Origin: Elusimicrobiota bacterium
GTDB taxonomy: Bacteria; Elusimicrobiota; Elusimicrobia; UBA1565
Assembly: GCA_041661185.1 (NCBI GenBank)
Contig: JBAZUV010000004.1
Coordinates: 9,987 to 73,986 of the forward strand
Reading direction: 5' to 3'
DNA: 64,000 nucleotides
Shown here piece by piece: positions 14,433 through 52,060 of this stretch (the stretch's first letter is position 1; each line of letters begins with the position of its first letter). The notes beneath the pieces were generated by a model, which was not told where the DNA came from, did no database searches, and saw nothing but the letters and a program-made list of their open reading frames with translations. The translations under genes were made by a program, and so were the position numbers.

Positions 14433-14512
14433 GGTGCCAGGCGTCAACTTGATTGAAATTCAACTTGCTCGGCCGAGCAAGTTGAATTTCAATCAAGTTG
14501 ACGCCTGGCACC
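14433..14512. repeat. 80-bp perfect palindromic element (copy 1) with GGTGCCAGG / CCTGGCACC termini
   Basis: ggtgccaggcgtcaacttgattgaaattcaacttgctcgg|ccgagcaagttgaatttcaatcaagttgacgcctggcacc is exactly self-complementary and identical to 59681-59760. It lies between the pseudouridine synthase and the kinase genes. Confidence 0.8.
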
Positions 14513-14533
14513 GGCATTCGGCATACTGGCGGC

Positions 14534-35946: not shown

Positions 35947-36839
35947 TAGAAACCCATCCCTCCTTTCTTGAAGATGTTGAGGACCATCGGGCTGAGCATG
36001 AGGATGAAGACCGTGGGGAAGATGAAGAAGAATATGGGGATGAGCATCTTGGTGGAGGCCTGCGCGGCCGCCTTCTCCGCGTTATTGAGCCGCCGAAAGC
36101 GCATGTCCGAGGAGAAGTTCCGCAAGAGGTCCACCAGGCTCGTACCCAGTTCGTCGGACTGGATGATGAGCCCCACGAAGGAGCGCACGTCCTGCAGGCC
36201 CGTGCGCATGGCCAGCCTGCGCAGAGCGTCGCGGCGGGAATAGCCGAGTCCGACCTCGCTGATGGCGCGCTCGACCTCGCGCTCGAGCTCCGTCTTCTTG
36301 ATGGCGACCGAGATGATGCGGTCGAAAGCGGTCATGTAGTCCAGCCCGGACTCGATGGTGAGCGCGGCTAGGTCGACCAAAGAAGGGAAGTTGCGCAGGA
36401 TCTCTCTCTGGCGCTCCTGGATGCGGCCCTTGAAATAGAAATCCGGCATGTAGAAGGCCACGGGCGCGGCGAGGACGCCCAAGAACACGCTCTCGGACAT
36501 GAAGTAGACGAAGCCCGCCGCCACTACGCAGCAGAGCTCCTTGTAGTGGAGTATCTGCAAGGCATTGGGCTTCTCCGGCTTGCCCAAGAGCATGTGCAGG
36601 TTCTCCAGCCGCGCGCCCATCTTGGCCTGATGCACGAGGAAGAAGTCCAGGCGCTCCAGGAGCCCGCCCTGGGGATTGAGCTTCTCGAAAGGAGAGACGT
36701 CCCCCTCCCGCTTGCCCGCGATGCGCGCCAGCGAGTCCGCGTCCTCCTCGGGAGAGGAGAACATCCGCTGCACCAGGGTGAAGACGGCCATGGACCCCAG
36801 GAAGCCGATGATGAGCAGCAATATCTGCATCAGTGCCAT
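35946..36839 (-). CDS. tadC: Tad pilus inner-membrane platform protein TadC (T2SSF family)
   Basis: 297 aa with the T2SSF domain pattern (LDFFLVHQAKMGARLEN..., SLVDLAALTIESGLDYMTAFDRI) and N- and C-terminal TM helices. Confidence 0.8.
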   Translation of the reverse strand: MALMQILLLIIGFLGSMAVFTLVQRMFSSPEEDADSLARIAGKREGDVSPFEKLNPQGGLLERLDFFLVHQAKMGARLENLHMLLGKPEKPNALQILHYKELCCVVAAGFVYFMSESVFLGVLAAPVAFYMPDFYFKGRIQERQREILRNFPSLVDLAALTIESGLDYMTAFDRIISVAIKKTELEREVERAISEVGLGYSRRDALRRLAMRTGLQDVRSFVGLIIQSDELGTSLVDLLRNFSSDMRFRRLNNAEKAAAQASTKMLIPIFFFIFPTVFILMLSPMVLNIFKKGGMGF

Positions 36840-38364: not shown

Positions 38365-38382
38365 CCTACGTTCCTTCTTTTT

Positions 38383-38490
38383 CGTCACCCCGGGCTTGAC
38401 CCGGGGGCCAGGAGCACGGCCAAACGACTTCCCCTGGATCCCGGCTTCCGCCGGGATGACGAATTTATGGGCTTTCGCCGGGATGACGAG
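38383..38490. repeat. GC-rich hairpin cluster 6
   Basis: gtcaccccgggcttgacccggggg, ctggatcccggcttccgccgggatgac, gggctttcgccgggatgac. Confidence 0.6.
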
Positions 38491-38515
38491 GAGCGCGAAG
38501 GAGACGGCCTCGCGC

Positions 38516-40897
38516 TCAAAGCGCATTGCGGGCCTCGTATTGCGCGTACTCCGGATGCTTCTTGAAGAGCTCGGGCGGGATGTTGAGCCCGGCCAGGCGG
38601 AACTCCTCGTAGAACTTCGGCGGCTTTCCGCAGCCGCTGAAGAAGCCCTGGGTCTTCCCGTCGGCATCGACGCCCGTGGCCACGTATCGGAACAAGTCGT
38701 TGGTGAGGATGGTGTTCTGGTCGCGGCCCGTGACCTCCGTGACCCAGGTGCAGCGGCGCTTGCCGTCCGGGAAGCGGGTGATCTGCACGACCAAGTGCAC
38801 GGCGGAAGCGATCATCTCGCGCAGGGCCCAGATAGGCAGGTCCGCGGAAGCCATCATGCACATGGCCTCCAAGCGCGTGAGCGCGTCGCGCGGGCTGTTG
38901 GCGTGGATGGTGGCCAAGGAGCCTTCATGGCCGGTGTTCATGGCCTGGAGCATGTCCAAGGCCTCGGAACCGCGGCACTCGCCGACGACGATGCGGTCCG
39001 GACGCATGCGCAGGCAGTTCTTGACCAGGTCGCGGATGGTGACCTCGCCCTTGCCCTCGATGTTGGGCGGGCGGCTCTCCAGCCGGATCCAGTGCTCCTG
39101 CAGAAGCTTGAGCTCCGCGGTGTCCTCGACGGTGATGATGCGCTCGTCCTCCGGGATGGAGGAGGAGAGCATGTTCAGGAAAGTGGTCTTTCCGGTGCCG
39201 GTTCCGCCGGAGATGATGATGCTCTTGCGCACGCGCACGCAGGCCTGCATGAAATCCAGGAGCTCCTCGTTGACGGAGCCGAAGCGGATAAGGTCCTTGC
39301 CGGAGAACGGGGTCTTGGAGAAGCGCCGGATGGTGAGCGTGGGACCGCTGACCGCCAGGGGCGGGATGATGGCGTTGACGCGAGAGCCGTCCTTCAAGCG
39401 AGCGTCGACCAGCGGCACCGACTCGTCGATGCGCCGTCCGATGGGCGCCACGATGCGCTTGATGACCTGGATGATCTGCTCGTCGTCGCGAAAGCGCAGC
39501 GAGGTCAAGACCAGCTTGCCGCCCCGTTCGATATAGACCTTGTCCGGGGCATTGACCATGATCTCGTTGACCGCGCTGTCGCGCATGAGCTCTTCGAGCG
39601 GGCCCAAACCCAGTATCTCGTCGAGGAGTTCGGCCACGAAGCGCTGGCGCAGGTCGCGAGAGAGCGGGAGGTTGGCCTCCTTCTGCAGAAGGCTCTCGAT
39701 GATGGCCGCGATCTTCTGGCGGACCTCCGCATTGCGCTCGTCGGAGTCGCTGATGCGGATGCGCTCGGTCTCCATGGCCGCCACCACGTGGCCGTGCATC
39801 TTCATCTTGAGCTCGTCCCAGAAGGCCGGCAGGTCCGTGGGCCGCGCGATAGGCTTGGCCTTGGCTTCGCCGCCCGGGCCGGCCATGGAAGAGGCCGTGG
39901 GTTTCCAGAGCAGGTTCGAGCCCTCGGAGAACTCATGCTCCTCCACCGCGGAGTGGCCCCAGGCCTTGGGACCCGAAGGGGTTTCCAGCATCTTGCCCAA
40001 GAGCGGGCGCAAGGCCTTGGCCCAGTCCGAATGCGGCTGCTCCACGACGAGGATGCGCCCCGTGTTCGCGAACTCGGGCAGAAGGTCTTCCCACGGCATG
40101 TAGGAAAGGACCCGCTTGTTCATGTTCGCGAAGAAGCGGTCGACTTCCTTGGGCGCCAGGGCGCCGGGCAGGTTCGCCTCGTTGAGCACGACCTCGAAGC
40201 GCTCCAAGGGGAAGTGCAGGGCCTTGAACTCCTGGAAGAGCGCGTAGGTGGACTCGAAGTGCCCGCGCTGAGGCAGGCAGGTCCAGAACACCAGGTCCGC
40301 CAGGTCGAAGGAGAAGACCTGCATCGGGAAATAGGGGTCCACGTCCAGGAAGAGGTCGTAGGACTGCGAAAGGCTCTCCAGGATGGGCACGATCACGTGC
40401 GGGGAGGTCTGCAGGACCTCCGAGCGCTTGCTTCCCAAGGGGAGCACGCCCACTCCCCACTGGGAGAGCGGGATGCGGCCCTTGAGCAGCTTGCTGAGCA
40501 CGGCCACGTCCTTGCCCACGAACTGCGTCAGGCTGGCCAAGGTCGGAGGCTGGAGCCCAAGCTGAAAGGAAAGGTCCGAGCGGCAAAGAGGGTCGAGCTG
40601 GACGATGAGCACGTTGCGGCTCTGCGTCCCGGCCCAAGCCAGGGCGAGATTGAGCGCGATGGAGGACTTCCCGACGCCTTCCTTGGGACCGGAGAACACC
40701 ACCACTCGGCCCGAGGACCGCGGCGTGGAGCCGGTCAGAGTCTTCGGCGCCGGAACCGTCGGAAACGGCGTGCCCGCAGAGGCCGGAGGAGCGGGGAAAG
40801 ACACGAGCTCCCCAGCCGGCGCCGGCGGCGTGGGCCTTTTCCCGGGGCCCGTGGGGAGCCCCGGAGTGCCGATGAACGGCGGAAGGTCGCTGGCCAT
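38516..40897 (-). CDS. Fused CpaE/TadZ-like (MinD/ParA-fold) domain + CpaF/TadA secretion ATPase
   Basis: The N-terminal ~330 aa carry a deviant Walker A (VVFSGPKEGVGKSSIALNLA) typical of CpaE. The C-terminal ~450 aa are CpaF (GGTGTGKTT, VTVEDTAELKL, VGECRGSEALDML, GHEGSLATIHAN). Confidence 0.85.
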   Translation of the reverse strand: MASDLPPFIGTPGLPTGPGKRPTPPAPAGELVSFPAPPASAGTPFPTVPAPKTLTGSTPRSSGRVVVFSGPKEGVGKSSIALNLALAWAGTQSRNVLIVQLDPLCRSDLSFQLGLQPPTLASLTQFVGKDVAVLSKLLKGRIPLSQWGVGVLPLGSKRSEVLQTSPHVIVPILESLSQSYDLFLDVDPYFPMQVFSFDLADLVFWTCLPQRGHFESTYALFQEFKALHFPLERFEVVLNEANLPGALAPKEVDRFFANMNKRVLSYMPWEDLLPEFANTGRILVVEQPHSDWAKALRPLLGKMLETPSGPKAWGHSAVEEHEFSEGSNLLWKPTASSMAGPGGEAKAKPIARPTDLPAFWDELKMKMHGHVVAAMETERIRISDSDERNAEVRQKIAAIIESLLQKEANLPLSRDLRQRFVAELLDEILGLGPLEELMRDSAVNEIMVNAPDKVYIERGGKLVLTSLRFRDDEQIIQVIKRIVAPIGRRIDESVPLVDARLKDGSRVNAIIPPLAVSGPTLTIRRFSKTPFSGKDLIRFGSVNEELLDFMQACVRVRKSIIISGGTGTGKTTFLNMLSSSIPEDERIITVEDTAELKLLQEHWIRLESRPPNIEGKGEVTIRDLVKNCLRMRPDRIVVGECRGSEALDMLQAMNTGHEGSLATIHANSPRDALTRLEAMCMMASADLPIWALREMIASAVHLVVQITRFPDGKRRCTWVTEVTGRDQNTILTNDLFRYVATGVDADGKTQGFFSGCGKPPKFYEEFRLAGLNIPPELFKKHPEYAQYEARNAL

Positions 40898-40912
40898 ATA
40901 TTATAGACGGCT

Positions 40913-41719
40913 TTATTTCACGATCTCGAACGTCACGAAAAGGAACAACGATTTCTGCTCTTCCAAGACGCTCGTGGTCGTGAAAAGCAGCCCGAGGATC
41001 GGGATGCGGCCCAAGAACGGGACGCGGGTCTTGGTCACGTTCTTGTTGCTGGACTTGAGTCCGCCGATGACGATGGTCTCACCGCTCTTGATCTCGACCT
41101 CGGTCTGGATCTGCCGCGTGACCATGGAAGGCACCGAAGTGTTCCCGACCGTCACGGGCTTCGAGTAGTCCGGGTTCGAGACCTCCAGCTGAAGCTGCGC
41201 GTCGATATAGTCCTTCTTGTTCGGATTGACCACGGGCAGGATGTTCAAGATCACGCCGAATTTCTTGTACTCCACGCCCACTCCCTGGTTATTGGCGACC
41301 GGATAAGGCTGCTCGCCGCCCACCACGAAGTTTGCCTGGGTGGCGGACTTGGTGATGACCTTGGGATTCGAGAGCAGCTGGGCCTTGCCCTCGGTCTCCA
41401 GAAGCTTGAGCGCGGTCTGCAGCTGGGTCAAGCGCTCGAAGTCGCCGATCCTGATGATGCCCGGGATAGGCGCCTTCTCCGCGAAGTTGATGCCGGTCTG
41501 GAAAGGCCCCCAGCTGAATCCCACGTCCTTGGAGATCGAGCCGCTGATCTCCACGACGTCGGCGCTGACCGCGATCATCACATTCTGCGCGTCGTCCTCG
41601 GCGGCCGCCTCCTCCTGCTGAGCCCTCAGGACTCCCGGAGCGAGAGCGAGCAATCCGGCAAGCAACACCCCTGTGAGGGCGCTTGGCCTTCCCGTTGAAC
41701 TTCGCTGTTGTCGTTCCAT
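40913..41719 (-). CDS. Minimal secretin (CpaC/RcpA-like; secretin C-domain only)
   Basis: 268 aa with a signal peptide and the secretin signature (LLSNPKVITKSATQANFVVGGEQPY, GVILNILPVV, GETIVIGGL, TRVPFLGRIPILGLLF); no N0-N3 domains. Confidence 0.8.
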   Translation of the reverse strand: MERQQRSSTGRPSALTGVLLAGLLALAPGVLRAQQEEAAAEDDAQNVMIAVSADVVEISGSISKDVGFSWGPFQTGINFAEKAPIPGIIRIGDFERLTQLQTALKLLETEGKAQLLSNPKVITKSATQANFVVGGEQPYPVANNQGVGVEYKKFGVILNILPVVNPNKKDYIDAQLQLEVSNPDYSKPVTVGNTSVPSMVTRQIQTEVEIKSGETIVIGGLKSSNKNVTKTRVPFLGRIPILGLLFTTTSVLEEQKSLFLFVTFEIVK

Positions 41720-41762: not shown

Positions 41763-42518
41763 CTATCTAAATAGTCTCCTGAAGCTCGCCATCTCCAAGG
41801 GGTGCATCTCAACATCCCCCAGGCCGCGCAGGATCACCGTGATGTCTCCCTGCTTCATGGCCAGAGAGAGATACTGCGCCTCCACCGCGTTGAGCGCCAC
41901 GCTCAGGATGCCCTTTTCCGCGAAAGCCGCCGACTGTTCGTCCTTCTTCTCTTTGTCCGCGAAATCCTTGGCCGCCATCCCCTGTCCGAGATTGCTGCCC
42001 ACGCCCAGCACGAGCGTGTTCTGCAGGATGGTGGCCGTGACCTTCTCCTTGCGGTTGTCGGCCATGAGCGCGTCGAAGGTCACCATCACGTCCACGCGGT
42101 CGCCGGGCTTGATGAGCTTGAGGAGCTCGTTCTCCACCGGGATGACGGCCCCGCGGTAGCCGGAGGGGATCTTCACGCTCAGTCCCGTGGTGGGCGAGAG
42201 CGGCGTGACGATCGAATGCGAGAGCTGGTTGCCCTTGGGAATGCGCACGCGCGTGACCAAGTTCGTGATCAGCTCGATGTCCGAGGGCGTCTTGACCTCG
42301 AAGGAATCCTGCGCCATGTATTTGCGCGGGATCTGCATGCCCTGCACGAGGTCCTTCTTAAGGAGAGTGCGCTCGGGCAAGTCCACGCGGGCCACGAGCA
42401 CCGTGGTGTTCTCGTGCGACTTGGCCAGCTGCTTCTCACGGCTGGTCAGGACCAGCAGGTAGAGAGCCGCGGCCGCCACGGCCAGGACCAGAGGGATCAG
42501 GACGCTCTTTTTTTCCAT
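41763..42518 (-). CDS. cpaB: Flp pilus assembly protein CpaB/RcpC (SAF-domain)
   Basis: 251 aa with an N-terminal TM anchor and CpaB-like beta-rich domains (VLVARVDLPERTLLKKDLV..., GDRVDVMVT). Confidence 0.8.
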   Translation of the reverse strand: MEKKSVLIPLVLAVAAAALYLLVLTSREKQLAKSHENTTVLVARVDLPERTLLKKDLVQGMQIPRKYMAQDSFEVKTPSDIELITNLVTRVRIPKGNQLSHSIVTPLSPTTGLSVKIPSGYRGAVIPVENELLKLIKPGDRVDVMVTFDALMADNRKEKVTATILQNTLVLGVGSNLGQGMAAKDFADKEKKDEQSAAFAEKGILSVALNAVEAQYLSLAMKQGDITVILRGLGDVEMHPLEMASFRRLFR

Positions 42519-42555: not shown

Positions 42556-43050
42556 CTATTTGAAAAGCGGCCGTTCTATCGGCATCCTTACGATGGCCCG
42601 CAAAAGCCTCGCCTTCTTTCCCGGCTGATCGGCCAAGACCACTCCCGTCATCGGGAAGACCATGGGCACCACGCGCCGGACCTCGACCTGCACGTCGTAG
42701 TTCATGCAGCCTTCCTGCGGATCCAGGAGCGTCGGGATCGGACCCTGGACCGATGCGAACGCCGGCGTCGGCGCCTTGAACATCTGAGCCACCACCTGCT
42801 GGGCCTTGGCCGGATCGAGCGAGGGCACCGCGCAGGAGGCCGAAGGCGTGCTTTTCGCCGTCAAAGAAGCGATGCGCGCGGCCTCGTAGGCCGCATGGTG
42901 GAGGAGGATGGTCTGGAAAGCCAGGAACCCGATCTCCATGATCATGAACATCAGGAACAGGAAGATCGGCAAGATGAGCAGGACCTCCACGAGCACCTGC
43001 CCCTCCTGCGCGCCCGAAAACTTCGGCGCGCGAACCGATCTCCAGACCAC
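42556..43050 (-). CDS. TadE/TadF-like pseudopilin
   Basis: TadE N-terminal motif GQVLVEVLLILPIFLFLMFMIMEIGF. The start is reassigned to the GTG at 43050, preceded by AGGAGGAGGGG; the ORF upstream of it overlaps flp in another frame. Confidence 0.6.
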   Translation of the reverse strand: MVWRSVRAPKFSGAQEGQVLVEVLLILPIFLFLMFMIMEIGFLAFQTILLHHAAYEAARIASLTAKSTPSASCAVPSLDPAKAQQVVAQMFKAPTPAFASVQGPIPTLLDPQEGCMNYDVQVEVRRVVPMVFPMTGVVLADQPGKKARLLRAIVRMPIERPLFK

Positions 43051-43100: not shown

Positions 43101-43292
43101 TTAGTTCGGCGATCCGACCGTGCTGGCGGCTCCGGAGATCATCTGCATGATCTGGTTGAAGATGCCGCTGATCTGCGGCTTGAACATCTTGCCGATCACG
43201 AGGATGACGCCCACGATGACGGCCAGCATCATCAGATACTCCACCGTGTTCTGGCCGCGCTTGCTGCGAAGGAACTCCTTCCATTTCTTCAT
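43101..43292 (-). CDS. flp: Flp-family type IVb pilin (flp-1)
   Basis: 63 aa; MKKWKEFLRSKRG|QNTVEYLMMLAVIVGVILVIG has a prepilin-peptidase G|Q site and a TVEY hydrophobic core. An SD-like AAAGGGGAG lies upstream. Confidence 0.8.
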   Translation of the reverse strand: MKKWKEFLRSKRGQNTVEYLMMLAVIVGVILVIGKMFKPQISGIFNQIMQMISGAASTVGSPN

Positions 43293-43368: not shown

Positions 43369-43391
43369 GGGGAACCCTGCCAGGGTTCCCC
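43369..43391 (-). other. Stem-loop between the two flp genes (possible attenuator/processing hairpin)
   Basis: ggggaaccctg-cc-agggttcccc forms a 10-bp stem ~25 nt after the flp-2 stop; there is no U-tract. Confidence 0.3.
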
Positions 43392-43413: not shown

Positions 43414-43569
43414 CTAAAAGTACGCAGTCAGAATCGCGATGCCGGCATTCGTGAACAGCCGCTTCGTCTGGCCCTGCAAGATCCGGTAGAGCGTGGTGAA
43501 GATGAACAAAAGCATCACGGTCATGAGCAGGTATTCCACCAGCGCCTGTCCGCGTCGTCGACGATGCAT
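43414..43569 (-). CDS. flp: Second Flp-family pilin (flp-2), 51 aa, below the ORF-track cutoff
   Basis: Hand translation gives MHRRRRG|QALVEYLLMTVMLLFIFTTLYRILQGQTKRLFTNAGIAILTAYF*, from the ATG at 43569 to the TAG at 43416-43414. It has the Flp G|Q-x-x-VEY motif. Confidence 0.7.
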   Translation of the reverse strand: MHRRRRGQALVEYLLMTVMLLFIFTTLYRILQGQTKRLFTNAGIAILTAYF

Positions 43570-43587: not shown

Positions 43588-44568
43588 TCAGAATTTCACC
43601 TTGAGAGACAGCATGTCCGCCGTCCCCAAAGCGCCCATCGAAACCAGCGAATAATCGAAAGCGATGCCGTAGCCGAAGGCCTGCGCGGTATAGAGTCCGA
43701 TGCCGAAGCTCCAGCGCGGGGACCCGATCAAGGGATACATGAAGCTGCGGTCTTTCTCCATGACCTGCCCCATGTCGTCGGCGTTATAGAAGCCCGCGCG
43801 CAATTGGACCTGCCCGATCTGCAGAAGGTCTTCCGGCAAGGTGAATTCCGCGCCGGCTCCCAGCCGCGCGGAGTTGTCGCTGGCCTTGCTGATCTCTCCG
43901 GTCAGGGTCAAGAGCTCCAGTATCCGGCCCGAGGCGCCGACGCGGGTGACGGAGGCGACCTTCGCGGTCCCGGCGCCGATGTTCTGGACGGAGGCGCCCA
44001 AGGTCCAGCCCTGGGCCGGACGCAGGAGCAAGCCCGCGTCGCCCACCACGGAGCTGCGCGCGGAGCCCGCGTTGTCCTCGTGCACGCCCTTGGCGCTGAC
44101 GCCCAGGAAGAGCCGCTCATACCAGAAGGAGCGCGCGAGGCTCAAGGTCGCGAAGCCGTTCTGCACGCGGATATCCGAGGAATCCATGGGACGCCCCTGG
44201 TCGTCGCGCGCATCGAACCCGTCCACGGACATGTAGGCGACGTTGGCTCCCGCCACGGTGCGGCCGAAAGGATGGGCATAGCCCATGTAGAAGGGAGAAT
44301 CGATCTCCTGGACATACCGGTAATAGGAGTAGACGAACTCCTTCTGCTGGGCCAAGGCCAAGCCCGCGGGATTCCAAGTCAGGGCGTCGGCGCCCTCGGC
44401 CAAGGACACATAGGCCCGGCCCAAGGCCATGGCGCGCGCGCTGCCCAGGCCCAGCTTCATGAAATTGGCTCCGCCCGTGCCCGCGGAAGAGTCGATAGCG
44501 GCCGCAGGAGCAGCGGCCGCGAAAGCCAGAACGCATGCCATCGCCGCGCCGCTCATCTTCGTTCTCAT
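43588..44568 (-). CDS. Outer-membrane beta-barrel protein (PorV/PorP-SprF/TraF-like N-terminal motif)
   Basis: 326 aa with signal peptide MRTKMSGAAMACVLAFAAAAPAAA, the motif GLGSARAMALGRAYVSLAEGADALTWNPAGLA, alternating beta-strands and a C-terminal Phe. Its start overlaps the upstream gene's stop (ATGA). Confidence 0.65.
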   Translation of the reverse strand: MRTKMSGAAMACVLAFAAAAPAAAIDSSAGTGGANFMKLGLGSARAMALGRAYVSLAEGADALTWNPAGLALAQQKEFVYSYYRYVQEIDSPFYMGYAHPFGRTVAGANVAYMSVDGFDARDDQGRPMDSSDIRVQNGFATLSLARSFWYERLFLGVSAKGVHEDNAGSARSSVVGDAGLLLRPAQGWTLGASVQNIGAGTAKVASVTRVGASGRILELLTLTGEISKASDNSARLGAGAEFTLPEDLLQIGQVQLRAGFYNADDMGQVMEKDRSFMYPLIGSPRWSFGIGLYTAQAFGYGIAFDYSLVSMGALGTADMLSLKVKF

Positions 44569-47500
44569 GGGATGAGCACCTTGCGCACGACCTGCAGGGG
44601 CGTCTTTTCTCCGCGGTTGGGCTCCTCACGGATGAGCACGAAGTACACGCCGGGCGCCACGGTCCGGCCGGCGCTGTTGGTCTTCGTCCAGACATAATCC
44701 ACATAAGTGTCCGAGGCCTGCACGCCGAAGTCCCGGCTGAAGACGACCTCGCCGGAGAGCGTGTAGATCTTCATCGTGACCTTGGACTGGACCGGCACGT
44801 AGATGTGCGTGCTCATGCTCGTTCCGCGCACGGGGTTCGGATAAAGGATCGTATTGTTGGCGAAGTCCGCCTCGGGATCGACCGAACCGCTGCGCACCAC
44901 CGGGACCTCCGCGATGATGAGGTCCTCGGCCAGGGACGCTCCCAAGCCCACCCCGCCGGAGATGCTGTCGATGGCCCGGATATCGGTGGAGGCCACGATC
45001 TTGAAGAGATAGTTGCCGTCCGGCACGATGGTCAGCCGTTCGTCGGTCCCGTCCCAGATATCCGTGATCTCCGTGCGCGCGGGCCGCACGCCAATGATGC
45101 GCTTGACCAAGCTCTGCGACTCCGGAGGCGTGGCATTGCCGTTGCGGTCGAAATTCGTCCCGGGTTTATAGATTTTGATGCCCACCTTCATGGTCTCGGA
45201 GACCTGATAGGCGATGAGCGCGGTGCCCGCGTCCGGCCGCAAGGGGCTGACCGCCACATCATAGACCCGCAAGGGGTTGGCTGAGATGGTCATCTGCGCC
45301 GTGGAACCCGAGGAGAGCACGGAAGCCAAGTCCTCGGCGATGGCCTGCACGGTATAGAAGCCCGGGCTCACGAAGTTCCCGGAATCATCGCGCGCATCCC
45401 AGAACTCGCGGTTGACGATGCCGGCGTCGCGCACCTGCCCCAAGACCAGGGTCCTGACCACCTGCGGCGAGATGGACGTGCTCAGTATCTGGATGGTGAC
45501 CGAGGACTGCCGGGTCAGGGAGTATTCCACCTGATAAGGAGGCAGCGAAATGGTCTGGCTGGAATTGAAGAGCGTGGGGACCGTGGGAGTGACGTTGAAG
45601 ATCGGGAACACGATGGAGCCGCGCGCGACGGTCACATTGCCCACGATCTGGTCCGTGGCGAAGTAGCGGGGCGTGGTCGTGGACTGCGCCGCCAGCACGA
45701 ACACATAGGTCCCGTCCGGCACAAAGAGGCCGTTGTGGTCGCGTCCGTCCCAGAACTCCGTGATCTTCATGCGTCCGGGCCGCATGCCCTTGATGACGAC
45801 CAAGGGAGTGGTCGGAGAACCGTTGCTGGTGACCTGCGCGCAGGCGCCGGGCTCGATGCTGCGGCACGGCGGCCATGTCGCCGTCGAGCCCGTGATCACG
45901 GTCCCGGGAGGATAGAGGCTCCAAGCCGCCTGCATGGGCTGGGAGAGCTGGTAGCTGATGGTGACCACGTCCGTGGACCCGGTCAAAAGCGGGGTCACGA
46001 CCACGTCCGTGATGCGAAAGAGATTGACCGAGAAGAGCGCGGTCACCGTCGAGACCTTGGACGGCACGAAAGGATCCGCGGCGGTCAGCTGCGCCAGATA
46101 GGTGCCGGAAGTCACCCAGAGCCCGCGGTCGTCGATGGGGATGTTCCAGCGGTCGCGGTTGGCGAAGTTCGCGGGCCTCGATTCATTGGCCACGAGGGTC
46201 TTGACCAGATTGATCCCGGTCTCGTCGTAGATCTTGAGATTGACGACGGCGTCGCGCGAAAGCGTGTAGCCGAAAGTAAAGGGGTCCAGGCCGGCTACGG
46301 AGGGCGAGGAGCCGATGACCGTGGAGGAAGGCCCCACCTGGCTGATGGTGACCATGCCGCGGCTGACCGTGATGAAGCCGCTTCGCGCGTTCGTAGACCA
46401 GATGCGCTGATCAGCAGGGTTCCCATTGAAGGAATAGCCGTTCTGTGAAGGCAGGGAGGCATACAGGACGAAGACATAGTCCCCATCCGGCAGGATATTG
46501 CCTGCGGTATCGCGGCCGTCCCAGATGCTGAGCACGCTCTTGCGAGAATCCTTCTGCTCCTCAATATGCCGCAACAGCGTCGTGGAAGGACCGAAGTTCT
46601 TAGGCACAACCCCCGCAAGATCTCCGAGAGAATTGACGCTATTGAGCCCCTGAGTGAACTCCGTGCCTGGAGCATAGATATCAATATAAACCGTGGCCGG
46701 TTCCGTGATCTGGTAGCTCAGCACCGCCAGGGAGGTGGAAAGGTCCATGAGCGGCTGGACCCGGATATCCGTGATCTGCAAGGTATCTAAGGAAATCTGC
46801 CGGGTGGCTGCCGCTCCCAGATCGAAGCCGAACTGATCTCGCACCATGGGCTGCAAGGTCGCCAAATACACGCCCGGAGGAGCCAAGTCCCCGTTATCCC
46901 AACGCCCGTTCCAAGAGTCCCCATTCTGCAGGCTCCCGTTCGGAACGCCTTCGCCCACGCGAGGAATCCCCGGAACTACGGTACGGATGACGGGGAAACT
47001 CAAGGCCGGATTCGCGGTATTATGGATAGTGAGATACATGGTGGCGTCTTTGGAGAGCCGGTAGGTCAGGTTATAGGGCTCTGCGGCCACGCCCGTAAGC
47101 TCGCCCACGACCGTGGGCGTGGAACGAACCACATGGACATTCGCCACGTCCATGGTGATAGGCGCTTGGTCTACGAATATTCCATTTGCTCCGGTATCGT
47201 CGCAATTCCCCGCGCTATCCAAAGCTTTGGTCGCGCCTGAAGGATACGCCCGAGTCTGCGTGATATTGATGTTCCCGCTGGCCCCGGTTTGGTTCGTGGC
47301 AACGGTCCCGCGGAACCCGAACTGCCCGTTCGTTTTTCCAAACTCACCCAAAATGTTATAGGCCCCGTCCCAAAGCACGCAGGTCGTGGGTACTGCCGCG
47401 TCGGCGGCGGGGTTGTCCGAGTTCGTATCCCCTGGAATGATGCCGGGGTTATCAACAAAAAAAGTACGGATCGGCGGCGCGGATTGCGGATCAAGAGGAT

Positions 47501-47963
47501 TGGTGCCTTGAGCGAATTTGAATATCTCGAAATTGATGTAATCGAGGGCGATGTCCGTGTCAGCAGTGGTCGTGCTTTGGTTGTTGTTCCAGCCCACCTT
47601 GAGGCACAAGAATATCTCCTTGTTGCAGACGTTCCAGACATCGTCTGATTCAGGAAAATTGGGACTGCTGGAGCACGTCGCAGACACCGCCTGATCGAAC
47701 TCGATGCGCGGATCATTGGAGATGTCGCCGTGGTTGGGACAGCGCGCCGTAGGAGTGCAGGTGAATCTCCCGGTCGCGGTAGTAAATGTGCAGACATCTG
47801 GACGAGCAACGAATATCTTCTTGATGAAGATCTGCTGCGCCATTGCCGGACCGGCTGCCGCGAAGAAGAACGCCGCGGCCAGCGCGGCCAAGCGCGCGCC
47901 GACGGAGAAACAACTCCCTCGCCTAAAAGACAGGAGCGCTCCCGGCTCTGCAGGGCTCATCAT
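44565..47963 (-). CDS. ~1130-aa secreted multi-repeat protein: multiple FlgD-Ig-like repeats and a T9SS-type (Por_Secre_tail-like) C-terminal domain
   Basis: Signal peptide starts at the MM codons at 47963 (MMSPAEPGALLSFRRGSCFSVGARLAALAAAFFFAAAGPAMA). The repeat motifs are WDGRDTAGNILPDGDYVFVL, WDGRDHNGLFVPDGTYVFVL, WDARDDSGNFVSPGFYTV and WDGTDERLTIVPDGNYLFKI. The C-terminus reads LYPNPVRGTSMSTHIY...MKIYTLSGEVV...PGVYFVLIREE...KVLIP. Confidence 0.75.
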   Translation of the reverse strand: MMSPAEPGALLSFRRGSCFSVGARLAALAAAFFFAAAGPAMAQQIFIKKIFVARPDVCTFTTATGRFTCTPTARCPNHGDISNDPRIEFDQAVSATCSSSPNFPESDDVWNVCNKEIFLCLKVGWNNNQSTTTADTDIALDYINFEIFKFAQGTNPLDPQSAPPIRTFFVDNPGIIPGDTNSDNPAADAAVPTTCVLWDGAYNILGEFGKTNGQFGFRGTVATNQTGASGNINITQTRAYPSGATKALDSAGNCDDTGANGIFVDQAPITMDVANVHVVRSTPTVVGELTGVAAEPYNLTYRLSKDATMYLTIHNTANPALSFPVIRTVVPGIPRVGEGVPNGSLQNGDSWNGRWDNGDLAPPGVYLATLQPMVRDQFGFDLGAAATRQISLDTLQITDIRVQPLMDLSTSLAVLSYQITEPATVYIDIYAPGTEFTQGLNSVNSLGDLAGVVPKNFGPSTTLLRHIEEQKDSRKSVLSIWDGRDTAGNILPDGDYVFVLYASLPSQNGYSFNGNPADQRIWSTNARSGFITVSRGMVTISQVGPSSTVIGSSPSVAGLDPFTFGYTLSRDAVVNLKIYDETGINLVKTLVANESRPANFANRDRWNIPIDDRGLWVTSGTYLAQLTAADPFVPSKVSTVTALFSVNLFRITDVVVTPLLTGSTDVVTISYQLSQPMQAAWSLYPPGTVITGSTATWPPCRSIEPGACAQVTSNGSPTTPLVVIKGMRPGRMKITEFWDGRDHNGLFVPDGTYVFVLAAQSTTTPRYFATDQIVGNVTVARGSIVFPIFNVTPTVPTLFNSSQTISLPPYQVEYSLTRQSSVTIQILSTSISPQVVRTLVLGQVRDAGIVNREFWDARDDSGNFVSPGFYTVQAIAEDLASVLSSGSTAQMTISANPLRVYDVAVSPLRPDAGTALIAYQVSETMKVGIKIYKPGTNFDRNGNATPPESQSLVKRIIGVRPARTEITDIWDGTDERLTIVPDGNYLFKIVASTDIRAIDSISGGVGLGASLAEDLIIAEVPVVRSGSVDPEADFANNTILYPNPVRGTSMSTHIYVPVQSKVTMKIYTLSGEVVFSRDFGVQASDTYVDYVWTKTNSAGRTVAPGVYFVLIREEPNRGEKTPLQVVRKVLIP

Positions 47964-48176
47964 GACACAGGTTCTACGCACACAAGAGAGTTTAATATCA
48001 GCCCTTTTCTGATTTGTTGATTCGCTGTTAAAAAGATGTTGCGCCGGCCCGTTCCTGAGGCCTGTCTGAATAATGGTATCAGCGCTCATAGGCTCGGGCA
48101 TGGGCCCTTCTGCTCACCCCTCCCCCGCCATAGGACCCACCAGAACCTAGGACCAAAGACTATCTGGTGCCTATCT

Positions 48177-48246
48177 GGTGCCAGGGGTCATTTTGTTCGC
48201 GTAACTTTCCGCGGAAAGTTACGCGAACAAAATGACCCCTGGCACC
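48177..48246. repeat. 70-bp perfect palindromic element sharing GGTGCCAGG / CCTGGCACC termini with the 80-bp elements
   Basis: ggtgccaggggtcattttgttcgcgtaactttccgcgg|aaagttacgcgaacaaaatgacccctggcacc is preceded by the tandem duplication ctatctggtgc-ctatctggtgc. Confidence 0.75.
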
Positions 48247-48247
48247 A

Positions 48248-50092
48248 TCAGCGAAGGAGGAAGCGTTTTAGGCTGGAGGACTGCTCGCCGGGGGCGGGGG
48301 CGGCCAAGGCCCAGAGTTCGAGATTCGAGCGCCCGTTCTCAACGGGAGCGAACACGAAGGAAAGGCTCTGCAAAGCCGAGGTGAAGGGGGCGTTCTTGGA
48401 CTGGACGAAGATCTTGCCTTCCAGGCGGAGCACGAGCAATTCGCGCGTCTTGGCGTCGTAGACCCAGAGCTCGCCGTTGTGCCAAGCCATGGCCCCGGGC
48501 ACAAGCTCGCGGTCCGAGTGATAATCCTCGGTCGCGGAATCCGCGCCTTCGCCCAAGTGCCGATAGAAGACGCGCGTGACCGCGTCATAGGACCAGAGAT
48601 TCTTGCCGTCGTGCGCGAGCGCCGTGGGCGCGGGCCCGGGCGTGGGCCAGACGTAGCGGATATCCGAGGGTTTGCCGAGCGCATGGCGCACGATGCGGCT
48701 CTGCGCGGAGTCGAGAGAATACATGCCGTCTCCTGAGAGCGCGAGCGCGGACGGATGATAGCTCCCCTCGGGCCGGACCTTGAAGCGTTCGATCACGCGC
48801 GAAGGATCGGCCGGATCGAGCAGCAGGAACTCCCCGTTCCAGTCGCAGACCCACAAGAGCGAGCCGTCATAAGCCATGGCCGTGGGCGTCGTGGAGGACA
48901 AAATCATCGACGAGATCGGCTTGACCGAAAGCAGGCGGCGCCATCGCATGACCGGGAACCAGGCTCCTGCCAGGACTCCTGCGATCAAGACTCCGGCGAT
49001 GATCGCGCGCCAAGGCCTGGCCGGCGCGCGCACGACTTCCACGGCCGGCGCAAGCGCCGCAGACGCCGCCGCAGGAGCAGACGCGGGCATGAAACGGCTG
49101 GAGGCATCGCGCATCCAGCTCGCGATGCGCTCTCCGGCCTCGGAGGACTTGCGCAAAGCCTCGGCCATCTGCGTGGCGTAGCGCGTCTCCCGGGACTCGA
49201 CATCCTGGAGCTGCGTGTGCCAGGTCTCGCGCTCCTTGCGAAGGCGCTCCTCCCAAGAGGTGAACTCCTGGCGCTGGGCCTCCCACGTGGAGCGCTCGCG
49301 ATCCCAGAGCTCCTGCCACTGCTTGCGCTCCTCCTGCCAGACATTCTCCATGCGCTGGAGACGATCCTCGGCCTCGCCCAGCCGCTTGACGGCTTCGGCG
49401 CGGGCCGTCTCGGCGGCCTCTCGGTCATGGCGCTCCTGCAGGAGTTCGGACAAGGTCTTCTCGACTACGCCCTTGGCCTGCTTGAGGTCCGCAGCGTCCT
49501 TGCGCGACTGCTCCTGCTGTCCGCCGCAGGAACGCTCCGCGCGCTCGGTTGACGAACGCAGTTCCTGCAGATCCAAAAGGTATTGCTGTTCCCGCTCGTT
49601 GAACTGCCGCTCCAACTCGCGAAAGCGCCCGGCCTCGGCGGCCAAACGCGCATGCGCCTGCTCGGCCATGGCGCGCAGGGTGCTGCGCTCCTCGTCGAAG
49701 CGCGCCTCCTGGGCCTTGAAGGCCTTCTGCGCCTGTTCGAGCTGCACGGAAAGATCGAAGGTCTTCTGATAGACGACGGAGTCGTCGCGCTGGGCCCTGC
49801 GCCGCAAGGCCGTGAGCTCCTGCTCGGATGAAGCGAGCCTCTCGCGCAGCTCGCGCAAAGCCAGCTCCTTGGCGTCGACGAGCCGGCGGAAATCATCGAG
49901 GCGGCCGCGATGCCGATTCTTCATCCACTCGAAGGTCTCCATGGAGACCTCGCTGGTGATGGAGGGTTCCTCAAAGGACGCGGGCATGCCCAAGGACGGC
50001 GCGCTCATGCCAGGGGCCTCCGGCATCCCGGAGGTCACGCGCGACCAGAGCCCGTCGAGCTCTTTCTGGAGGTCGTCCGAATTCATAGGCAT
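48248..50092 (-). CDS. Bitopic membrane protein: cytoplasmic coiled-coil (~330 aa), one TM, periplasmic beta-propeller-like repeats
   Basis: Long heptad-rich segments (LRELRERLASSEQELTALRRRAQ...), TM AIIAGVLIAGVLAGAWFPV, and C-terminal repeats with W/Y-x-YD (LLWVCDWNGEFLLLD, LWSYDAVTRVFYRH, LWVYDAKTRELLVL). Confidence 0.6.
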   Translation of the reverse strand: MPMNSDDLQKELDGLWSRVTSGMPEAPGMSAPSLGMPASFEEPSITSEVSMETFEWMKNRHRGRLDDFRRLVDAKELALRELRERLASSEQELTALRRRAQRDDSVVYQKTFDLSVQLEQAQKAFKAQEARFDEERSTLRAMAEQAHARLAAEAGRFRELERQFNEREQQYLLDLQELRSSTERAERSCGGQQEQSRKDAADLKQAKGVVEKTLSELLQERHDREAAETARAEAVKRLGEAEDRLQRMENVWQEERKQWQELWDRERSTWEAQRQEFTSWEERLRKERETWHTQLQDVESRETRYATQMAEALRKSSEAGERIASWMRDASSRFMPASAPAAASAALAPAVEVVRAPARPWRAIIAGVLIAGVLAGAWFPVMRWRRLLSVKPISSMILSSTTPTAMAYDGSLLWVCDWNGEFLLLDPADPSRVIERFKVRPEGSYHPSALALSGDGMYSLDSAQSRIVRHALGKPSDIRYVWPTPGPAPTALAHDGKNLWSYDAVTRVFYRHLGEGADSATEDYHSDRELVPGAMAWHNGELWVYDAKTRELLVLRLEGKIFVQSKNAPFTSALQSLSFVFAPVENGRSNLELWALAAPAPGEQSSSLKRFLLR

Positions 50093-50155
50093 AGAAGCAT
50101 CCCGAAAAAAGAGTAACAGGCTTCCTCAGGATTTCTATGAAGGAATTGTTGCGGC

Positions 50156-50347
50156 TCGACCTCGCCCATTTTTCCTGACGGGTGGAGCAGAGGGAGAAGT
50201 CCCTCCCTTCCCCCGCGCCCCTGGGAACTCCGTTCCCCCCGATCCCGTCGTTGGAGCGATCCGGGACCCATTGGGGCCCCCCTCCACGGGAGCGGGAGGG
50301 ACTCCTCCCTCTGCTCCACCCTCCGTTTCTTAGGGCGAGGTCGAATT
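50156..50347. repeat. MITE-like structured element, copy B (forward)
   Basis: TIR ctcgacctcgcccat / agggcgaggtcgaa, the same conserved core as copy A, and an inner stem ggagcagagggagaagtccctcc / ggagggactcctccctctgctcc. Confidence 0.65.
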
Positions 50348-50455
50348 TTGATGCGTGAAGTGGACTCAAGGAAAGCCGGTGCTGAAACTTCCGTATCCCC
50401 GGGTGCTGGAAACGGCTTGACTGAGGCTTTCCTCAACGAACAGCCCCTATCTCCA

Positions 50456-50650
50456 GACTCGACCTCACCCATCAGAACAGCGGGAGGCGCGCAGGGGATG
50501 CACTCTCCCGCTCCCGTAGAGGGGGGCCCCGCCATCGCCCGAATTGCTCACACCGCGGGTTTGGGGGGAACTGGTTCCCAGGGGTGCGGGGGAAGGGAGA
50601 GTGCATCCACTGAGCGTCGGGTCCCGCCAGAAAAATGGGTGAGGTCGAGG
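50456..50650. repeat. MITE-like structured element, copy C (reverse orientation)
   Basis: Its reverse complement aligns to copies A/B: ctcgacctcacccatttttctggcggg...cttcccccgcacccctgggaaccagttcccccc...ggggcccccctctacgggagcggg...gggtgaggtcgag. The inner stem gatgcactctcc/ggagagtgcatc is compensatory. Confidence 0.65.
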
Positions 50651-52060
50651 TTAACGCCGCTGCAGGCGCTGGTACTCGAGATTGGCCTCGCCGAGGTCCA
50701 CTTCCGTTCCCTTGTAGTCGGCCAGGATGCGCTTGAGGCGCTCGGCCAGCACCAGTTCGGACGCGCCCTGAAGCTTGAGGTCCTGATAGGCGCGCCAATC
50801 ATCGGAGAACCTGAGCTTCACATCCGCCCGGCGCAGGCGTTCCTGCTCCTCCTGCATCTTCTCAAGCTTGCGCTGGGCCTCGACCCGGCGCCGCTCCATG
50901 GCCTTGAGTTGGATCTCCCGCTCCAAAAGCCTGGCCCTGAGTTCAGCCTCTCCCCGACCCGCGGCATCCTCCGCGGACTGCTTGCGCAGGGCTTCCATCT
51001 CCTCGCGCAGGAGCTTGAGCTCCTCGGCCAGGCGCCACTGCTTGAGCTCCGCGGATTCCAAGGCCTTGCCCAGCTCCCGGCGGGAAGACATCTCGGATTT
51101 AAGCAGGGTCTCGTACTCCGTCTCCGGGTTCCAGGAGCCGAAGCGCCAGCTCATGCTCACGACATGGCTCCAGCGCGTGCCGCTCGAAAGCGGGATGCGC
51201 AGGGCATAATCCACTCGCGCGCCCAGACGCTTGAATCCCGCGCCCAAGCTCCAGGAGCGCGCCAAGCCTCCGAGCGTGAGTCCGCTCCTGGCCAGGAAGG
51301 TGCCGAAGCCCGCGGTGCTCCAGGAGCACTCGCTGGCCAAGGTCGCGGCATAGGCCGTACGCCGGCCCGAGGAAGGCTCTCTGCCCGCCCAGTCCATGAG
51401 GACCTTGTAGCGCCGGACCTGCTGGGCGAAACCGAAACGCATGGTGAGCGGCGCTCGGTCCGGGATCCCGGGAAGATCCAGGCGCGGAGCATTCAGATTG
51501 AGGAAGGAGAGTCCCAAGGAACGATCATCGGAAAGCTTAAGAGAAAAACCCAGGTCCCCGGCCGCGCGGGTCAAGCCTCCTCCCGTTCTTCGCCCCGAGC
51601 GGGAAAGCCCTCGGACGCCCACGCCCAGGTTCAGTATCGCGGGCCCGATCTCGCGCCAGTTGCGCGTGCCGTAGGCAAAGCCGAACTGCCGGTCCAAGGC
51701 CGTGTTCCCCAGGATATCGTGGGTCCAGTAGGCGGCTAAGCCGCCTTCGAGCGGCCCATGGAGCTGGGTCCCGGCCGCAGCAGTCATGCCCTCCATGTCC
51801 GTCTCCGCGGCCGCGGCATGGAAAAGCCTTCGCGCCGAGAGCTCCACGTCCGTGCGTTCCAGGGAGCCGGCCGCGGCCGGATTGATGGACACGACCTCGG
51901 CATCGTCGGATAGAGCCGTCACCGCGTCGCCCAATCCGGCCGCGCGCGCGCCCAAACCCACGTCCTCGAAAGCCGCCCGCGCGGGCGCAGCAGCAGAGAG
52001 GAACGCAGCCATGAGTCCAAGTCTGATGTCCATTCCCCGCCGGCTCTTGATAAGACTCAT
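50651..52060 (-). CDS. Outer-membrane beta-barrel-like protein (same N-terminal motif family as 43588-44568) with C-terminal coiled-coil extension
   Basis: Signal peptide, then GLGARAAGLGDAVTALSDDAEVVSINPAAAG, and a ~130-aa Glu/Arg-rich heptad tail (LRKQSAEDAAGRGEAELRARLLEREIQLKAMERRRVEAQRKLEKMQEEQERLRR). Confidence 0.6.
   Translation of the reverse strand: MSLIKSRRGMDIRLGLMAAFLSAAAPARAAFEDVGLGARAAGLGDAVTALSDDAEVVSINPAAAGSLERTDVELSARRLFHAAAAETDMEGMTAAAGTQLHGPLEGGLAAYWTHDILGNTALDRQFGFAYGTRNWREIGPAILNLGVGVRGLSRSGRRTGGGLTRAAGDLGFSLKLSDDRSLGLSFLNLNAPRLDLPGIPDRAPLTMRFGFAQQVRRYKVLMDWAGREPSSGRRTAYAATLASECSWSTAGFGTFLARSGLTLGGLARSWSLGAGFKRLGARVDYALRIPLSSGTRWSHVVSMSWRFGSWNPETEYETLLKSEMSSRRELGKALESAELKQWRLAEELKLLREEMEALRKQSAEDAAGRGEAELRARLLEREIQLKAMERRRVEAQRKLEKMQEEQERLRRADVKLRFSDDWRAYQDLKLQGASELVLAERLKRILADYKGTEVDLGEANLEYQRLQRR

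Follow-up and report, generated by a model that had tools for sequence, protein, structure and literature searches.

The sorting tails and PorV-type carriers of the T9SS are regarded as hallmarks of the Bacteroidota and the FCB group. In this system the tail of a client protein passes through SprA and then binds PorV on the extracellular side. Tails of type A are marked by a PNP motif near their start, a GxY motif and a basic-hydrophobic end. In Porphyromonas gingivalis, PorV and PorQ hold PorU and PorZ on the surface (PMC5562754), and a single general PorV serves the type A tails in the T9SS (PMC12618676). Clients of type B are bound by PorP/SprF proteins whose genes are linked to theirs, as in the SprB-SprF and PG1035-PorP pairs of Bacteroidota, where each client gene is accompanied by that of a tail-binding, anchoring barrel of its own (PMC9143113, PMC12618676). 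The T9SS has been reported from Bacteroidota/FCB only (PMC4793230, which found none outside Bacteroidetes; PMC12421860). Tad systems were noted in Elusimicrobia by Denise et al. 2019 (PMC6668835). Literature searches on Elusimicrobia with T9SS or PorV, on PorV with Tad, and on FlgD with T9SS found nothing relevant.

We analysed a 64-kb stretch of one contig of 246 kb (the window), in which the gene of a large protein, here called BIG, is followed on the same strand by the gene of an outer-membrane barrel and then by a Flp/Tad operon (Table 1). The earlier note on this DNA had predicted a host of the FCB group such as a member of the Gemmatimonadota. The contig is instead from Elusimicrobiota: proteins 100% identical to those encoded here carry the deposited name 'Elusimicrobiota bacterium', and each of the 61 related genome loci comes from Elusimicrobia. 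These loci, from 61 Elusimicrobia species genomes, served as the sample for the analysis of synteny.

Table 1. Features of the BIG-barrel-Tad locus, in positions of the window.
Feature	Position	Strand	Evidence or remark
Perfect 34-bp-stem hairpin between the upstream gene and the BIG promoter region	48177..48246	.	-70.5 kcal/mol, z -14
BIG signal peptide, aa 1-42, Sec-type, ...AGPAMA/QQ	47838..47963	-	Translation; start agrees with P0121
BIG N-terminal head, aa 43-267, beta-rich, conserved cysteines	47163..47837	-	Family: none known
Six FlgD-Ig-type beta-sandwich domains of BIG in three a-b pairs, aa 268-1000	44964..47162	-	Pfam, self-BLAST, AF2
BIG sorting-type C-terminal domain, aa 1036-1132, YPNPV...GVYF...RKVLIP	44568..44858	-	TIGR04183; stop codon 44565-44567
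PorV/PorQ-family outer-membrane barrel, 326 aa, 14-strand (AF2), C-terminus ...KVKF	43588..44568	-	Start overlaps BIG stop by ATGA
flp1 pilin, 51 aa, RRGQALVEY	43414..43569	-	18 nt after barrel stop
GC-rich 10-bp hairpin between flp1 and flp2, possible attenuator	43369..43391	-	Fold -34 kcal/mol, 68-nt context, z -1.9
flp2 pilin, 63 aa, KRGQNTVEY	43101..43292	-	G-x4-EY motif
TadE-like pseudopilin, likely GTG start at 43049 (inferred)	42556..43049	-	Pfam TadE 1.5e-10
CpaB/RcpC	41763..42518	-	TIGR03177 91.9 bits vs cut-off 71; Pfam RcpC
Minimal secretin, 268 aa	40913..41719	-	Pfam Secretin 5.8e-41
TadZ (ParA-like)-TadA ATPase fusion	38516..40897	-	T2SSE 1.5e-65 (222 bits) and CbiA
TadB ORF	36841-38667	-	T2SSF domain
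TadC	35946-36839	-	T2SSF domain
TPR protein, possible TadD-like	34594-35946	-	Syntenic in all loci reaching that far
Conserved HAMP-like membrane protein	33473-34684	-	Syntenic in all loci reaching that far

The maximal open reading frame of BIG spans 44565-48101 on the minus strand and encodes 1178 residues. A start at 47963 gives a protein of 1132 residues (44565-47963, minus strand) that equals the deposited protein P0121 with 100% identity and coverage, and the stretch upstream of this start is AT-rich and untranslated. From its sequence, BIG is predicted to be a secreted protein in which a novel cysteine-rich head is followed by six FlgD-Ig-type domains of alternating kind and by a sorting-type C-terminal domain. 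The head had no match in Pfam or NCBIfam, and in an alignment of 30 orthologues its cysteines C69, C97, C113, C120 and C195 were invariant. When the head was searched against 1.84 billion cluster representatives, 79 matched at E<=1e-3. All seven of the head-matching proteins tested carry FlgD_ig, and six of the seven also carry a C-terminal domain of the CHU_C/Por_Secre_tail type.

The Ig region of BIG matched Pfam FlgD_ig with E=6e-28 (97 bits), and its AF2 model was all-beta with a pLDDT of 76. By self-BLAST (E down to 9e-20) the domains fell into two alternating subtypes, d1/d3/d5 and d2/d4/d6. At least five repeats with the FlgD-Ig fold had been claimed; the fold was borne out, but the strict motif WD[GA][RT]D occurs only four times (aa 481, 738, 855 and 970), and three degenerate copies at aa 351, 606 and 1092, the last of them within the C-terminal domain, bring the number of sandwiches to seven. 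Foldseek with full-length BIG returned only generic multi-Ig arrays (mastigoneme, alpha-2-macroglobulin, complement) at TM <0.2 and gave no information on the head.

Orthologues of BIG are named 'flagellar hook assembly protein FlgD' in JGI. The repeats and the tail of BIG do match the Ig-like domain of the FlgD flagellar hook cap (PF13860; PDB 7bhq, E=7e-4), but this domain is the sole part that the two proteins have in common. Against the FlgD equivalog models the best score of BIG was 75 bits (cut-off 230), and no flagellar gene was found among the proteins of the 64-kb window scanned with Pfam and NCBIfam. We rejected a FlgD function because the match is limited to the Ig domain and the equivalog cut-off is missed by a wide margin. 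The JGI name is a misannotation at the level of the domain.

The C-terminus of BIG passed the T9SS type A model TIGR04183 with 34.9-35.1 bits against a cut-off of 23, over aa 1040-1112. A match to this model was present in all 30 orthologues, while the type B model matched in one of the 30. In the 30 sequences P1042, N1043, P1044, G1105 and Y1107 were invariant, and K1128 and L1130 of the K-x-L-I-P end were at least 90% conserved. The tail also matched the tail parts of the PorZ and PorU models. The resemblance to a Por_Secre_tail noticed earlier stands on the side of TIGR04183 and of the PNP, GxY and K-x-L motifs, but not on that of Pfam PF18962 (Por_Secre_tail) itself, for which the domain scored 17.4 bits, below the gathering score of 27.

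The overlap of the barrel start with the BIG stop codon in ATGA was read directly in the sequence, as the earlier note had it, and the two genes are translationally coupled through it. Like BIG, the barrel has a Sec signal peptide. It had no match in Pfam and scored 80.9 bits (E=1.2e-22) against the NCBIfam PorV/PorQ family model NF033709, whose family cut-off is 90. All 16 of the orthologues tested matched PorV/PorQ family models (best E=3.5e-30), and some of them carry the NCBI name PorV/PorQ family. The scores against the equivalog models were far under the cut-offs, with 18.6 bits for PorV (NF033710, cut-off 250) and 38.7 bits for PorQ (NF033711, cut-off 220). When a profile of the 16 orthologues was searched against all PDB sequences, PorV alone was found (6h3i_F, E=1.4e-6). 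The AF2 model of the barrel has 14 strands at a mean pLDDT of 73; its best Foldseek match was the PorV chain 8gl6_F (E=2e-10, TMq 0.63), which belongs to a substrate-bound T9SS complex, and 6h3i_F was also among the top matches. Resemblance to PorP/SprF and TraF, which had been proposed together with PorV, was rejected because neither gave a match in NCBIfam (E<=0.01), in the 16 orthologues (E<=0.001) or in Pfam; of that proposal the PorV part was kept. The upstream gene u469 was considered as a near paralogue of the barrel and discarded, the relation being weak (hhalign probability 33%).

The genes after the barrel are those of a Flp/Tad (type IVc) system: two pilins with the G-x4-EY motif, a TadE-like protein, CpaB/RcpC, a secretin, TadZ, TadA, TadB, TadC and a TPR protein lie in one cluster on one strand, so that the contiguity with a Tad operon reported in the earlier note was confirmed. 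The cluster differs from the described systems in that its secretin is minimal, TadZ and TadA are fused, and the prepilin peptidase is not seen in it; no TadV/CpaA was found among the ORFs scanned from 22 to 48 kb, a scan in which small ORFs were partly covered. Against the TadA family model the fusion scored 335 bits, with the cut-off at 373. It differs further in its first two genes, which encode a tail-bearing protein with multiple Ig domains and a PorV-like barrel. No Tad system with such parts is shown in PMC6668835, PMC12307814 or PMC10499894, in agreement with the view that the arrangement is unusual.

Scans of the region 42.9-48.4 kb for the limits of the transcription unit gave no sigma-70-like promoter and, for terminators, weak terminator-like sites only, none of them clear; Rfam gave no match within the window. 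A z-score of just -1.9 makes the hairpin between flp1 and flp2 weak evidence for an attenuator. The perfect hairpin upstream of BIG was considered as a conserved operon boundary and rejected, being missing from 36 related loci.

The order BIG-barrel-flp was invariant across the clade. BIG was directly upstream of the barrel in all 58 related species genomes compared, and the 4-nt overlap was retained in 53 of them. TadE followed within 2 kb downstream of the barrel in 55 of 55 related loci, where ORFs with the Flp-type G-x4-EY motif stood immediately after the barrel, two of them in 51 of the 55. In the locus L071, in which BIG and the barrel are each 38% identical to those of the window, the barrel and a flp gene were still next to BIG, and the length and architecture of BIG stayed constant down to this identity. 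The region upstream of BIG was more variable: u469 and another upstream gene, u614, are missing in three loci (L047, L049 and L054), and L002 has extra genes there, whereas no insertion or loss was found between BIG, the barrel and flp in the related loci. The median identity was 53.8% for BIG and 54.7% for the barrel, rates of change like those of TadB, TadC and the TPR gene (55-58%). BIG and the barrel evolve far more slowly than u469 and u614 (38%). The same synteny block contains the housekeeping gene tsaD, so the conserved order by itself is no proof of a functional link with Tad.

Separate loci of Elusimicrobia show the same design. At some of them a CarboxypepD_reg/FlgD_ig protein of 1836 or 2096 residues is paired with its own PorV-family barrel, and at another a 321-residue NHL protein (TIGR04183, 32 bits) has its own barrel of this family. 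In both types of cassette the client stop overlaps the start of its barrel by 4 nt. Another PorV-family barrel (157 bits) was found just outside the window, two genes from a protein bearing a sorting-type C-terminal domain. Tail-bearing clients in these bacteria are each provided with a barrel of their own, following the logic of the PorP/SprF anchors and not that of a general PorV shuttle. The cassette also occurs at loci unrelated to Tad, thus the basic function of the pair needs no pilus.

The reading we favour, to which we give a probability of about one half, is that BIG is a client with the barrel as its cognate anchor, the pair being made of T9SS-type parts and leading the Flp/Tad operon of a large clade of Elusimicrobiota. 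We infer the interaction of tail and barrel wholly from homology. By analogy with PorU:PorV, PorZ:PorQ and SprB:SprF, the tail domain of BIG would remain attached to the cognate barrel as a 1:1 complex, and the barrel would thereby hold a stalk of about 25-30 nm, tipped by the novel head, on the cell envelope. The place of the pair in the operon suggests that BIG would be produced together with Flp pili and act with them in attachment, perhaps as a short-range adhesin engaged upon pilus retraction or as a structure of the envelope where the pilus exits. Against this reading stand the barrel score just under the PorV/PorQ family cut-off and far under those of the equivalogs, the PF18962 score of the tail, and the result that no translocon was found in the window and flanks.

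Both precedents agree with the pair in part. With PorU:PorV and PorZ:PorQ of P. gingivalis it shares a type A-like C-terminal Ig domain matched with a FadL-fold barrel of the PorV/PorQ family (PMC5562754), but BIG has no sortase or LPS-delivery domain, each client has a dedicated barrel coupled by ATGA, and the pair sits within a Tad operon of an Elusimicrobiota host. The low equivalog scores also set the barrel apart from PorV and PorQ, and no T9SS core was found in the window and flanks. The linkage of client gene and barrel gene is that of the type B pairs of Bacteroidota, but the tail is type A-like and the barrel is of the PorV/PorQ family, not of PorP/SprF.

The earlier note had taken the two proteins for a T9SS cargo and its shuttle. 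An ordinary cargo and PorV-type shuttle would presume a complete but unrecognised T9SS, in which SprA exports BIG, PorV-like proteins transport it and the adjacency to Tad reflects co-regulation only. That the tail passed the type A model and the barrel is PorV-like would fit, as would the several tail-bearing proteins and PorV-family barrels of these genomes, which are expected given an export route. However, models of SprA, GldK/L/M/N and PorU gave no match among the window proteins scanned (about 40; Pfam and NCBIfam), and none of the T9SS-core Pfam families was found among the genes in the flanks of the related loci examined. The host phylum lies outside the reported range, the literature search found no link between Elusimicrobia and T9SS, and the pairing of one barrel with one client is unlike the single general PorV that serves type A tails. 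We consider this explanation unlikely.

Equally tentative is the idea that a tail client with a dedicated PorV-family barrel forms, in Elusimicrobiota, a self-contained two-gene device for surface display or secretion, free of the T9SS translocon and motor, that is an independent relative or forerunner of the T9SS cargo-shuttle module and has become integral here to the pilus apparatus. BIG might then, for example, leave by way of the Tad secretin and dock on the barrel beside the pilus exit.

Slightly more doubtful is that BIG and the barrel belong to the structure of the Tad machine, such as an outer-membrane/periplasmic scaffold or gate offsetting the short secretin, or that BIG is a substrate which the Flp filament pushes through the secretin, in the manner of type II secretion, and which then docks on the barrel. 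The pair invariably opens the operon, it is conserved at the level of the machine subunits with a fixed length and architecture, the secretin has just 268 residues, and no RcpB-like gene was seen. The occurrence of the same cassette away from Tad and the lack of such parts in any known Tad system argue against it.

A coincidental neighbourhood, in which BIG and the barrel would be an independent surface-layer or adhesin unit within the Tad synteny block, appears improbable. It draws on the synteny of tsaD and other unrelated genes, and on a gap of about 200 nt ahead of BIG which, with the strong hairpin of this genome, would make BIG the start of its own unit. Against this, genes were inserted or lost upstream yet never between BIG, barrel and flp, the barrel and flp1 are only 18 nt apart in the window, and the linkage persists at 38% identity. 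Finally, a barrel that is a FadL-type channel for hydrophobic compounds, functionally unrelated to BIG, is very improbable: FadL, TbuX and TodX came next after PorV in Foldseek and the barrel has an N-terminal hatch with an NPA motif, but its sequence profiles match PorV and PorV/PorQ models only, and in three unrelated cassettes a barrel is translationally coupled to a tail-bearing protein.

Here, two hallmark parts of the T9SS are present in another phylum, with client and barrel wired one-to-one, and across about 60 species a pair of this kind keeps its place at the start of a Flp/Tad operon. Its retention in so many species of a phylum from which no T9SS is known suggests that the anchoring device of tail plus barrel also occurs beyond the bacteria it is known from, and that it is linked in this case to an adhesion pilus. 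If the T9SS core is absent, the recognition between tail and barrel would be older than the T9SS translocon or separable from it, some other route across the outer membrane would be needed for the 1132 residues of BIG, and a far simpler system would become available for tests of tail recognition and movement. Should the core turn out to be present, Elusimicrobiota would join the hosts from which the T9SS is known. In both cases, a conserved accessory pair not described before, with a near-unique head domain, accompanies the Tad pili of this clade; this bears on how uncultured Elusimicrobiota of groundwater and sediment attach to surfaces or partners.

The genes described first, in this part of the window, are all on the minus strand. 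The earlier note had described a large secreted protein with a sorting-type tail (BIG), a 326-aa barrel gene overlapping it by ATGA, and a contiguous Tad pilus operon in the same orientation. This observation was confirmed at the coordinates given. Within the maximal ORF of BIG, translation from the ATG at 47963 yields 1132 aa headed by a typical Sec signal peptide; the deposited protein P0121 has the same length and sequence. The barrel start overlaps the BIG stop codon (ccATGAgaacg), and flp1 (RRGQALVEY) begins 18 nt past the barrel stop. Next come a small hairpin and flp2 (KRGQNTVEY), then the genes for a TadE-like pseudopilin, CpaB, a secretin and a TadZ-TadA fusion, and after these TadB, TadC, a TPR protein and a HAMP-like membrane protein. 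The Tad cluster showed no prepilin peptidase. The Tad genes here are a regular, compact Flp/Tad set.

After its signal peptide, BIG has a beta-rich head of ~225 aa, six FlgD-Ig-type sandwiches in which two subtypes alternate (Pfam FlgD_ig, 97 bits), and a C-terminal domain that starts with YPNPV and ends with RKVLIP. At least five W-D-G-R-D repeats had been claimed; the strict W-D-G/A-R/T-D motif was present only four times, but three degenerate copies were found in addition. The proposed Por_Secre_tail-type C-terminus passed the NCBIfam/TIGRFAM type A sorting-domain model TIGR04183 (35 bits, cut-off 23) but stayed below the threshold of the Pfam sorting-tail model (17 bits against 27). TIGR04183 matched 30/30 aligned orthologues, and the type B model matched one of the 30. 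The length of BIG stays between 1100 and 1240 aa. JGI names BIG orthologues "FlgD", which is a misannotation at the level of the domain. In the AF2 model of the full-length protein (pLDDT 76), the beta-sandwiches form a row, and its structural neighbours were generic ones only.

The head had no family match, and it carries cysteines that are invariant in the alignment of BIG orthologues. When residues 44-268 were searched against 1.84 billion cluster representatives, only 79 matches were obtained at E<=1e-3, mostly N-termini of proteins of ~1000-1500 aa. FlgD_ig repeats were found in all seven of the matched proteins tested and a CHU_C/Por_Secre_tail-type C-terminal domain in six, the seventh, P0413, matching FlgD_ig only. 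The head is essentially private to the BIG protein family.

The barrel has a signal peptide and the C-terminus KVKF. It had been likened to both PorV and PorP/SprF. The evidence is for PorV kinship; PorP/SprF models gave no score. Pfam had no match, and the PorV/PorQ family model NF033709 gave 80.9 bits (cut-off 90). All 16 orthologues tested matched the PorV/PorQ and PorQ models, and most matched the PorV model. The sole relative of the orthologue profile among all PDB sequences was Flavobacterium PorV. In the AF2 model (pLDDT 73, 14 strands), the closest fold was PorV in a substrate-bound translocon complex, with FadL-type channels next. By homology, BIG and the barrel are assigned to the type A sorting-tail class and the PorV/PorQ superfamily, respectively; homology does not place the barrel as an orthologue of PorV or PorQ, or within PorP/SprF.

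Features of the window and of fetched Elusimicrobia loci (L numbers)
Feature	Position	Strand	Description
BIG, maximal ORF	44565-48101	-	ORF reading
Barrel	43588-44568	-	PorV-like, 326 aa
TadZ-TadA and secretin	38516-41719	-	TadZ (ParA-like)-TadA fusion, 793 aa; secretin, 268 aa
Inverted repeat	48177-48246		perfect, 34-bp stem, directly after u614 stop; -70.5 kcal/mol, z -14
u614	48248-50092	-	N-terminal coiled coil, one TM helix, beta-rich C-terminal domain
u469	50651-52060	-	signal peptide, divergent PorV-like barrel, ~160-aa C-terminal coiled coil
2405-aa protein	4451-11668	-	ClpB-like double AAA+ modules, C-terminal M48 peptidase domain
Ser/Thr protein kinase	14498-15844	+	divergently oriented, adjoins the 2093-aa protein
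2093-aa protein	15804-22085	-	two subtilase domains, HEAT repeats
Second module	L065:10661-18841		just beyond window position 1, minus-strand downstream; barrel, TPR, 341-aa tail protein, fibrous protein
Tail-bearing client loci	L068:4494-10927; L070:1714-8939; L069:160-2027		unrelated to Tad
Tandem BIG-like paralogues	L071:1051-10161		more divergent lineage; 1498 and 1115 aa, then barrel, flp gene

The earlier note had predicted an FCB-group host such as Gemmatimonadota. This was wrong: the barrel, BIG and one flanking protein were 100% identical to deposited "Elusimicrobiota bacterium" MAG proteins from a contig of ~245 kb, and named homologues were all from Elusimicrobia. When one genome per GTDB species was scanned with the barrel profile, 61 loci were obtained, all from Elusimicrobia/Elusimicrobiota MAGs, one of them a complete 3.8-Mb genome.

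Gene order at these loci was compared by tblastn with the window proteins. It was the same everywhere: tsaD, u469, u614, BIG, barrel, flp, tadE, cpaB, secretin, tadZ/A, tadB, tadC, TPR, d403. Upstream rearrangements were seen in L002, with extra genes, and in L047, L049 and L054, without u469 and u614; none was found within BIG-barrel-flp in the examined loci. BIG was immediately 5ʹ of the barrel in 58/58 loci, and in 53 of these the barrel frame had a start codon exactly 4 nt ahead of the BIG stop, an overlap also present in independent gene calls for three loci. Flp-type ORFs followed the barrel in 55/55 loci (two in 51, one in the other four), with TadE <2 kb 3ʹ of the barrel in 55/55. Even a distant BIG with 38% identity over its full length, including the tail, is followed by a barrel (38%) and a flp gene. 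Relative to the window proteins, the median identities of BIG (53.8%) and the barrel (54.7%) were near those of TadB (57.7%), TadC (55.6%), TPR (55.2%) and TsaD (56.8%), so BIG is not a fast-evolving, repeat-variable adhesin.

The upstream genes u469 and u614 are syntenic in most relatives, yet fast-evolving (median identity ~38% each). u469, which ends in SWRF, scored 31.8 bits against NF033709 on aa 33-100, and the two could form a trans-envelope pair. The ~560-bp gap between them (50093-50650) contained no convincing ORF or Rfam match. The ~150 nt 5ʹ of BIG are AT-rich and non-coding, and the 34-bp-stem hairpin precedes them. This hairpin has no second copy in the window and was absent from the same intergenic region of 36 relatives; a terminator, a mobile palindrome and an artefact of assembly are all possible identities.

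A tail plus a PorV-like barrel is a general device in the phylum. Besides u469, a third, divergent barrel inside the window, a true member of the PorV/PorQ family (157 bits) is encoded ~300 nt outside the window start, in the L065 module. There, the 341-aa protein ends in a sorting-type domain, and the giant fibrous protein (>1622 aa, LQGN[IV]FNA repeats) had no family or PDB match. Homologues of this barrel are also from Elusimicrobia, some fused to TPR or OmpA domains. Examination of the contexts of three further barrel paralogues revealed the design twice more. One client has 1836 aa (2096 aa at the orthologous locus), CarboxypepD_reg/FlgD_ig domains and a PorU/PorZ-tail-like end, and such giants are preceded by a FecR-like gene; the other is a 321-aa NHL protein (TIGR04183, 32 bits). 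In both cases the client stop overlaps the start of its own PorV-family barrel (163-173 bits) by 4 nt. The fourth barrel stands alone, beside lptF/G and lptD.

In P. gingivalis, PorV binds substrate tails; PorU and PorZ, whose tails are retained, are anchored at the cell surface by PorV and PorQ (PMC5562754). One PorV serves all type A tails in Bacteroidota (PMC12618676), where each type B client has a genetically linked PorP/SprF barrel of its own that binds it (PMC9143113, PMC12618676). In Elusimicrobiota a type A-like tail is genetically paired one-to-one with a PorV-family barrel. The most economical reading, to which we give a probability of about 0.5 as a whole, begins with binding of the BIG tail to its cognate barrel at a fixed stoichiometry, as supported by the translational coupling of the genes. 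In the same reading, the barrel would anchor a stalk made up of the six sandwiches and tipped by the novel head, and the complex would be made together with Flp pili and function jointly with them in attachment; we infer here the interaction, surface exposure and co-transcription.

No T9SS core genes were found in the window or the fetched locus flanks. In published surveys T9SS is confined to Bacteroidota/FCB (PMC4793230, PMC12421860), and we found no paper joining Elusimicrobia to T9SS or PorV. Either a T9SS-like translocon is encoded elsewhere in the genome, or BIG takes another path such as the Tad secretin, or it remains in the periplasm as a part of the machine. Tad systems in Elusimicrobia have been noted previously (PMC6668835), and no described Tad locus has a pair of this type (PMC6668835, PMC10499894, PMC12307814). 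The parts were already known; the novelty lies in the phylum, in the one-to-one wiring and in the pair's fixed position as the first genes of a pilus operon.
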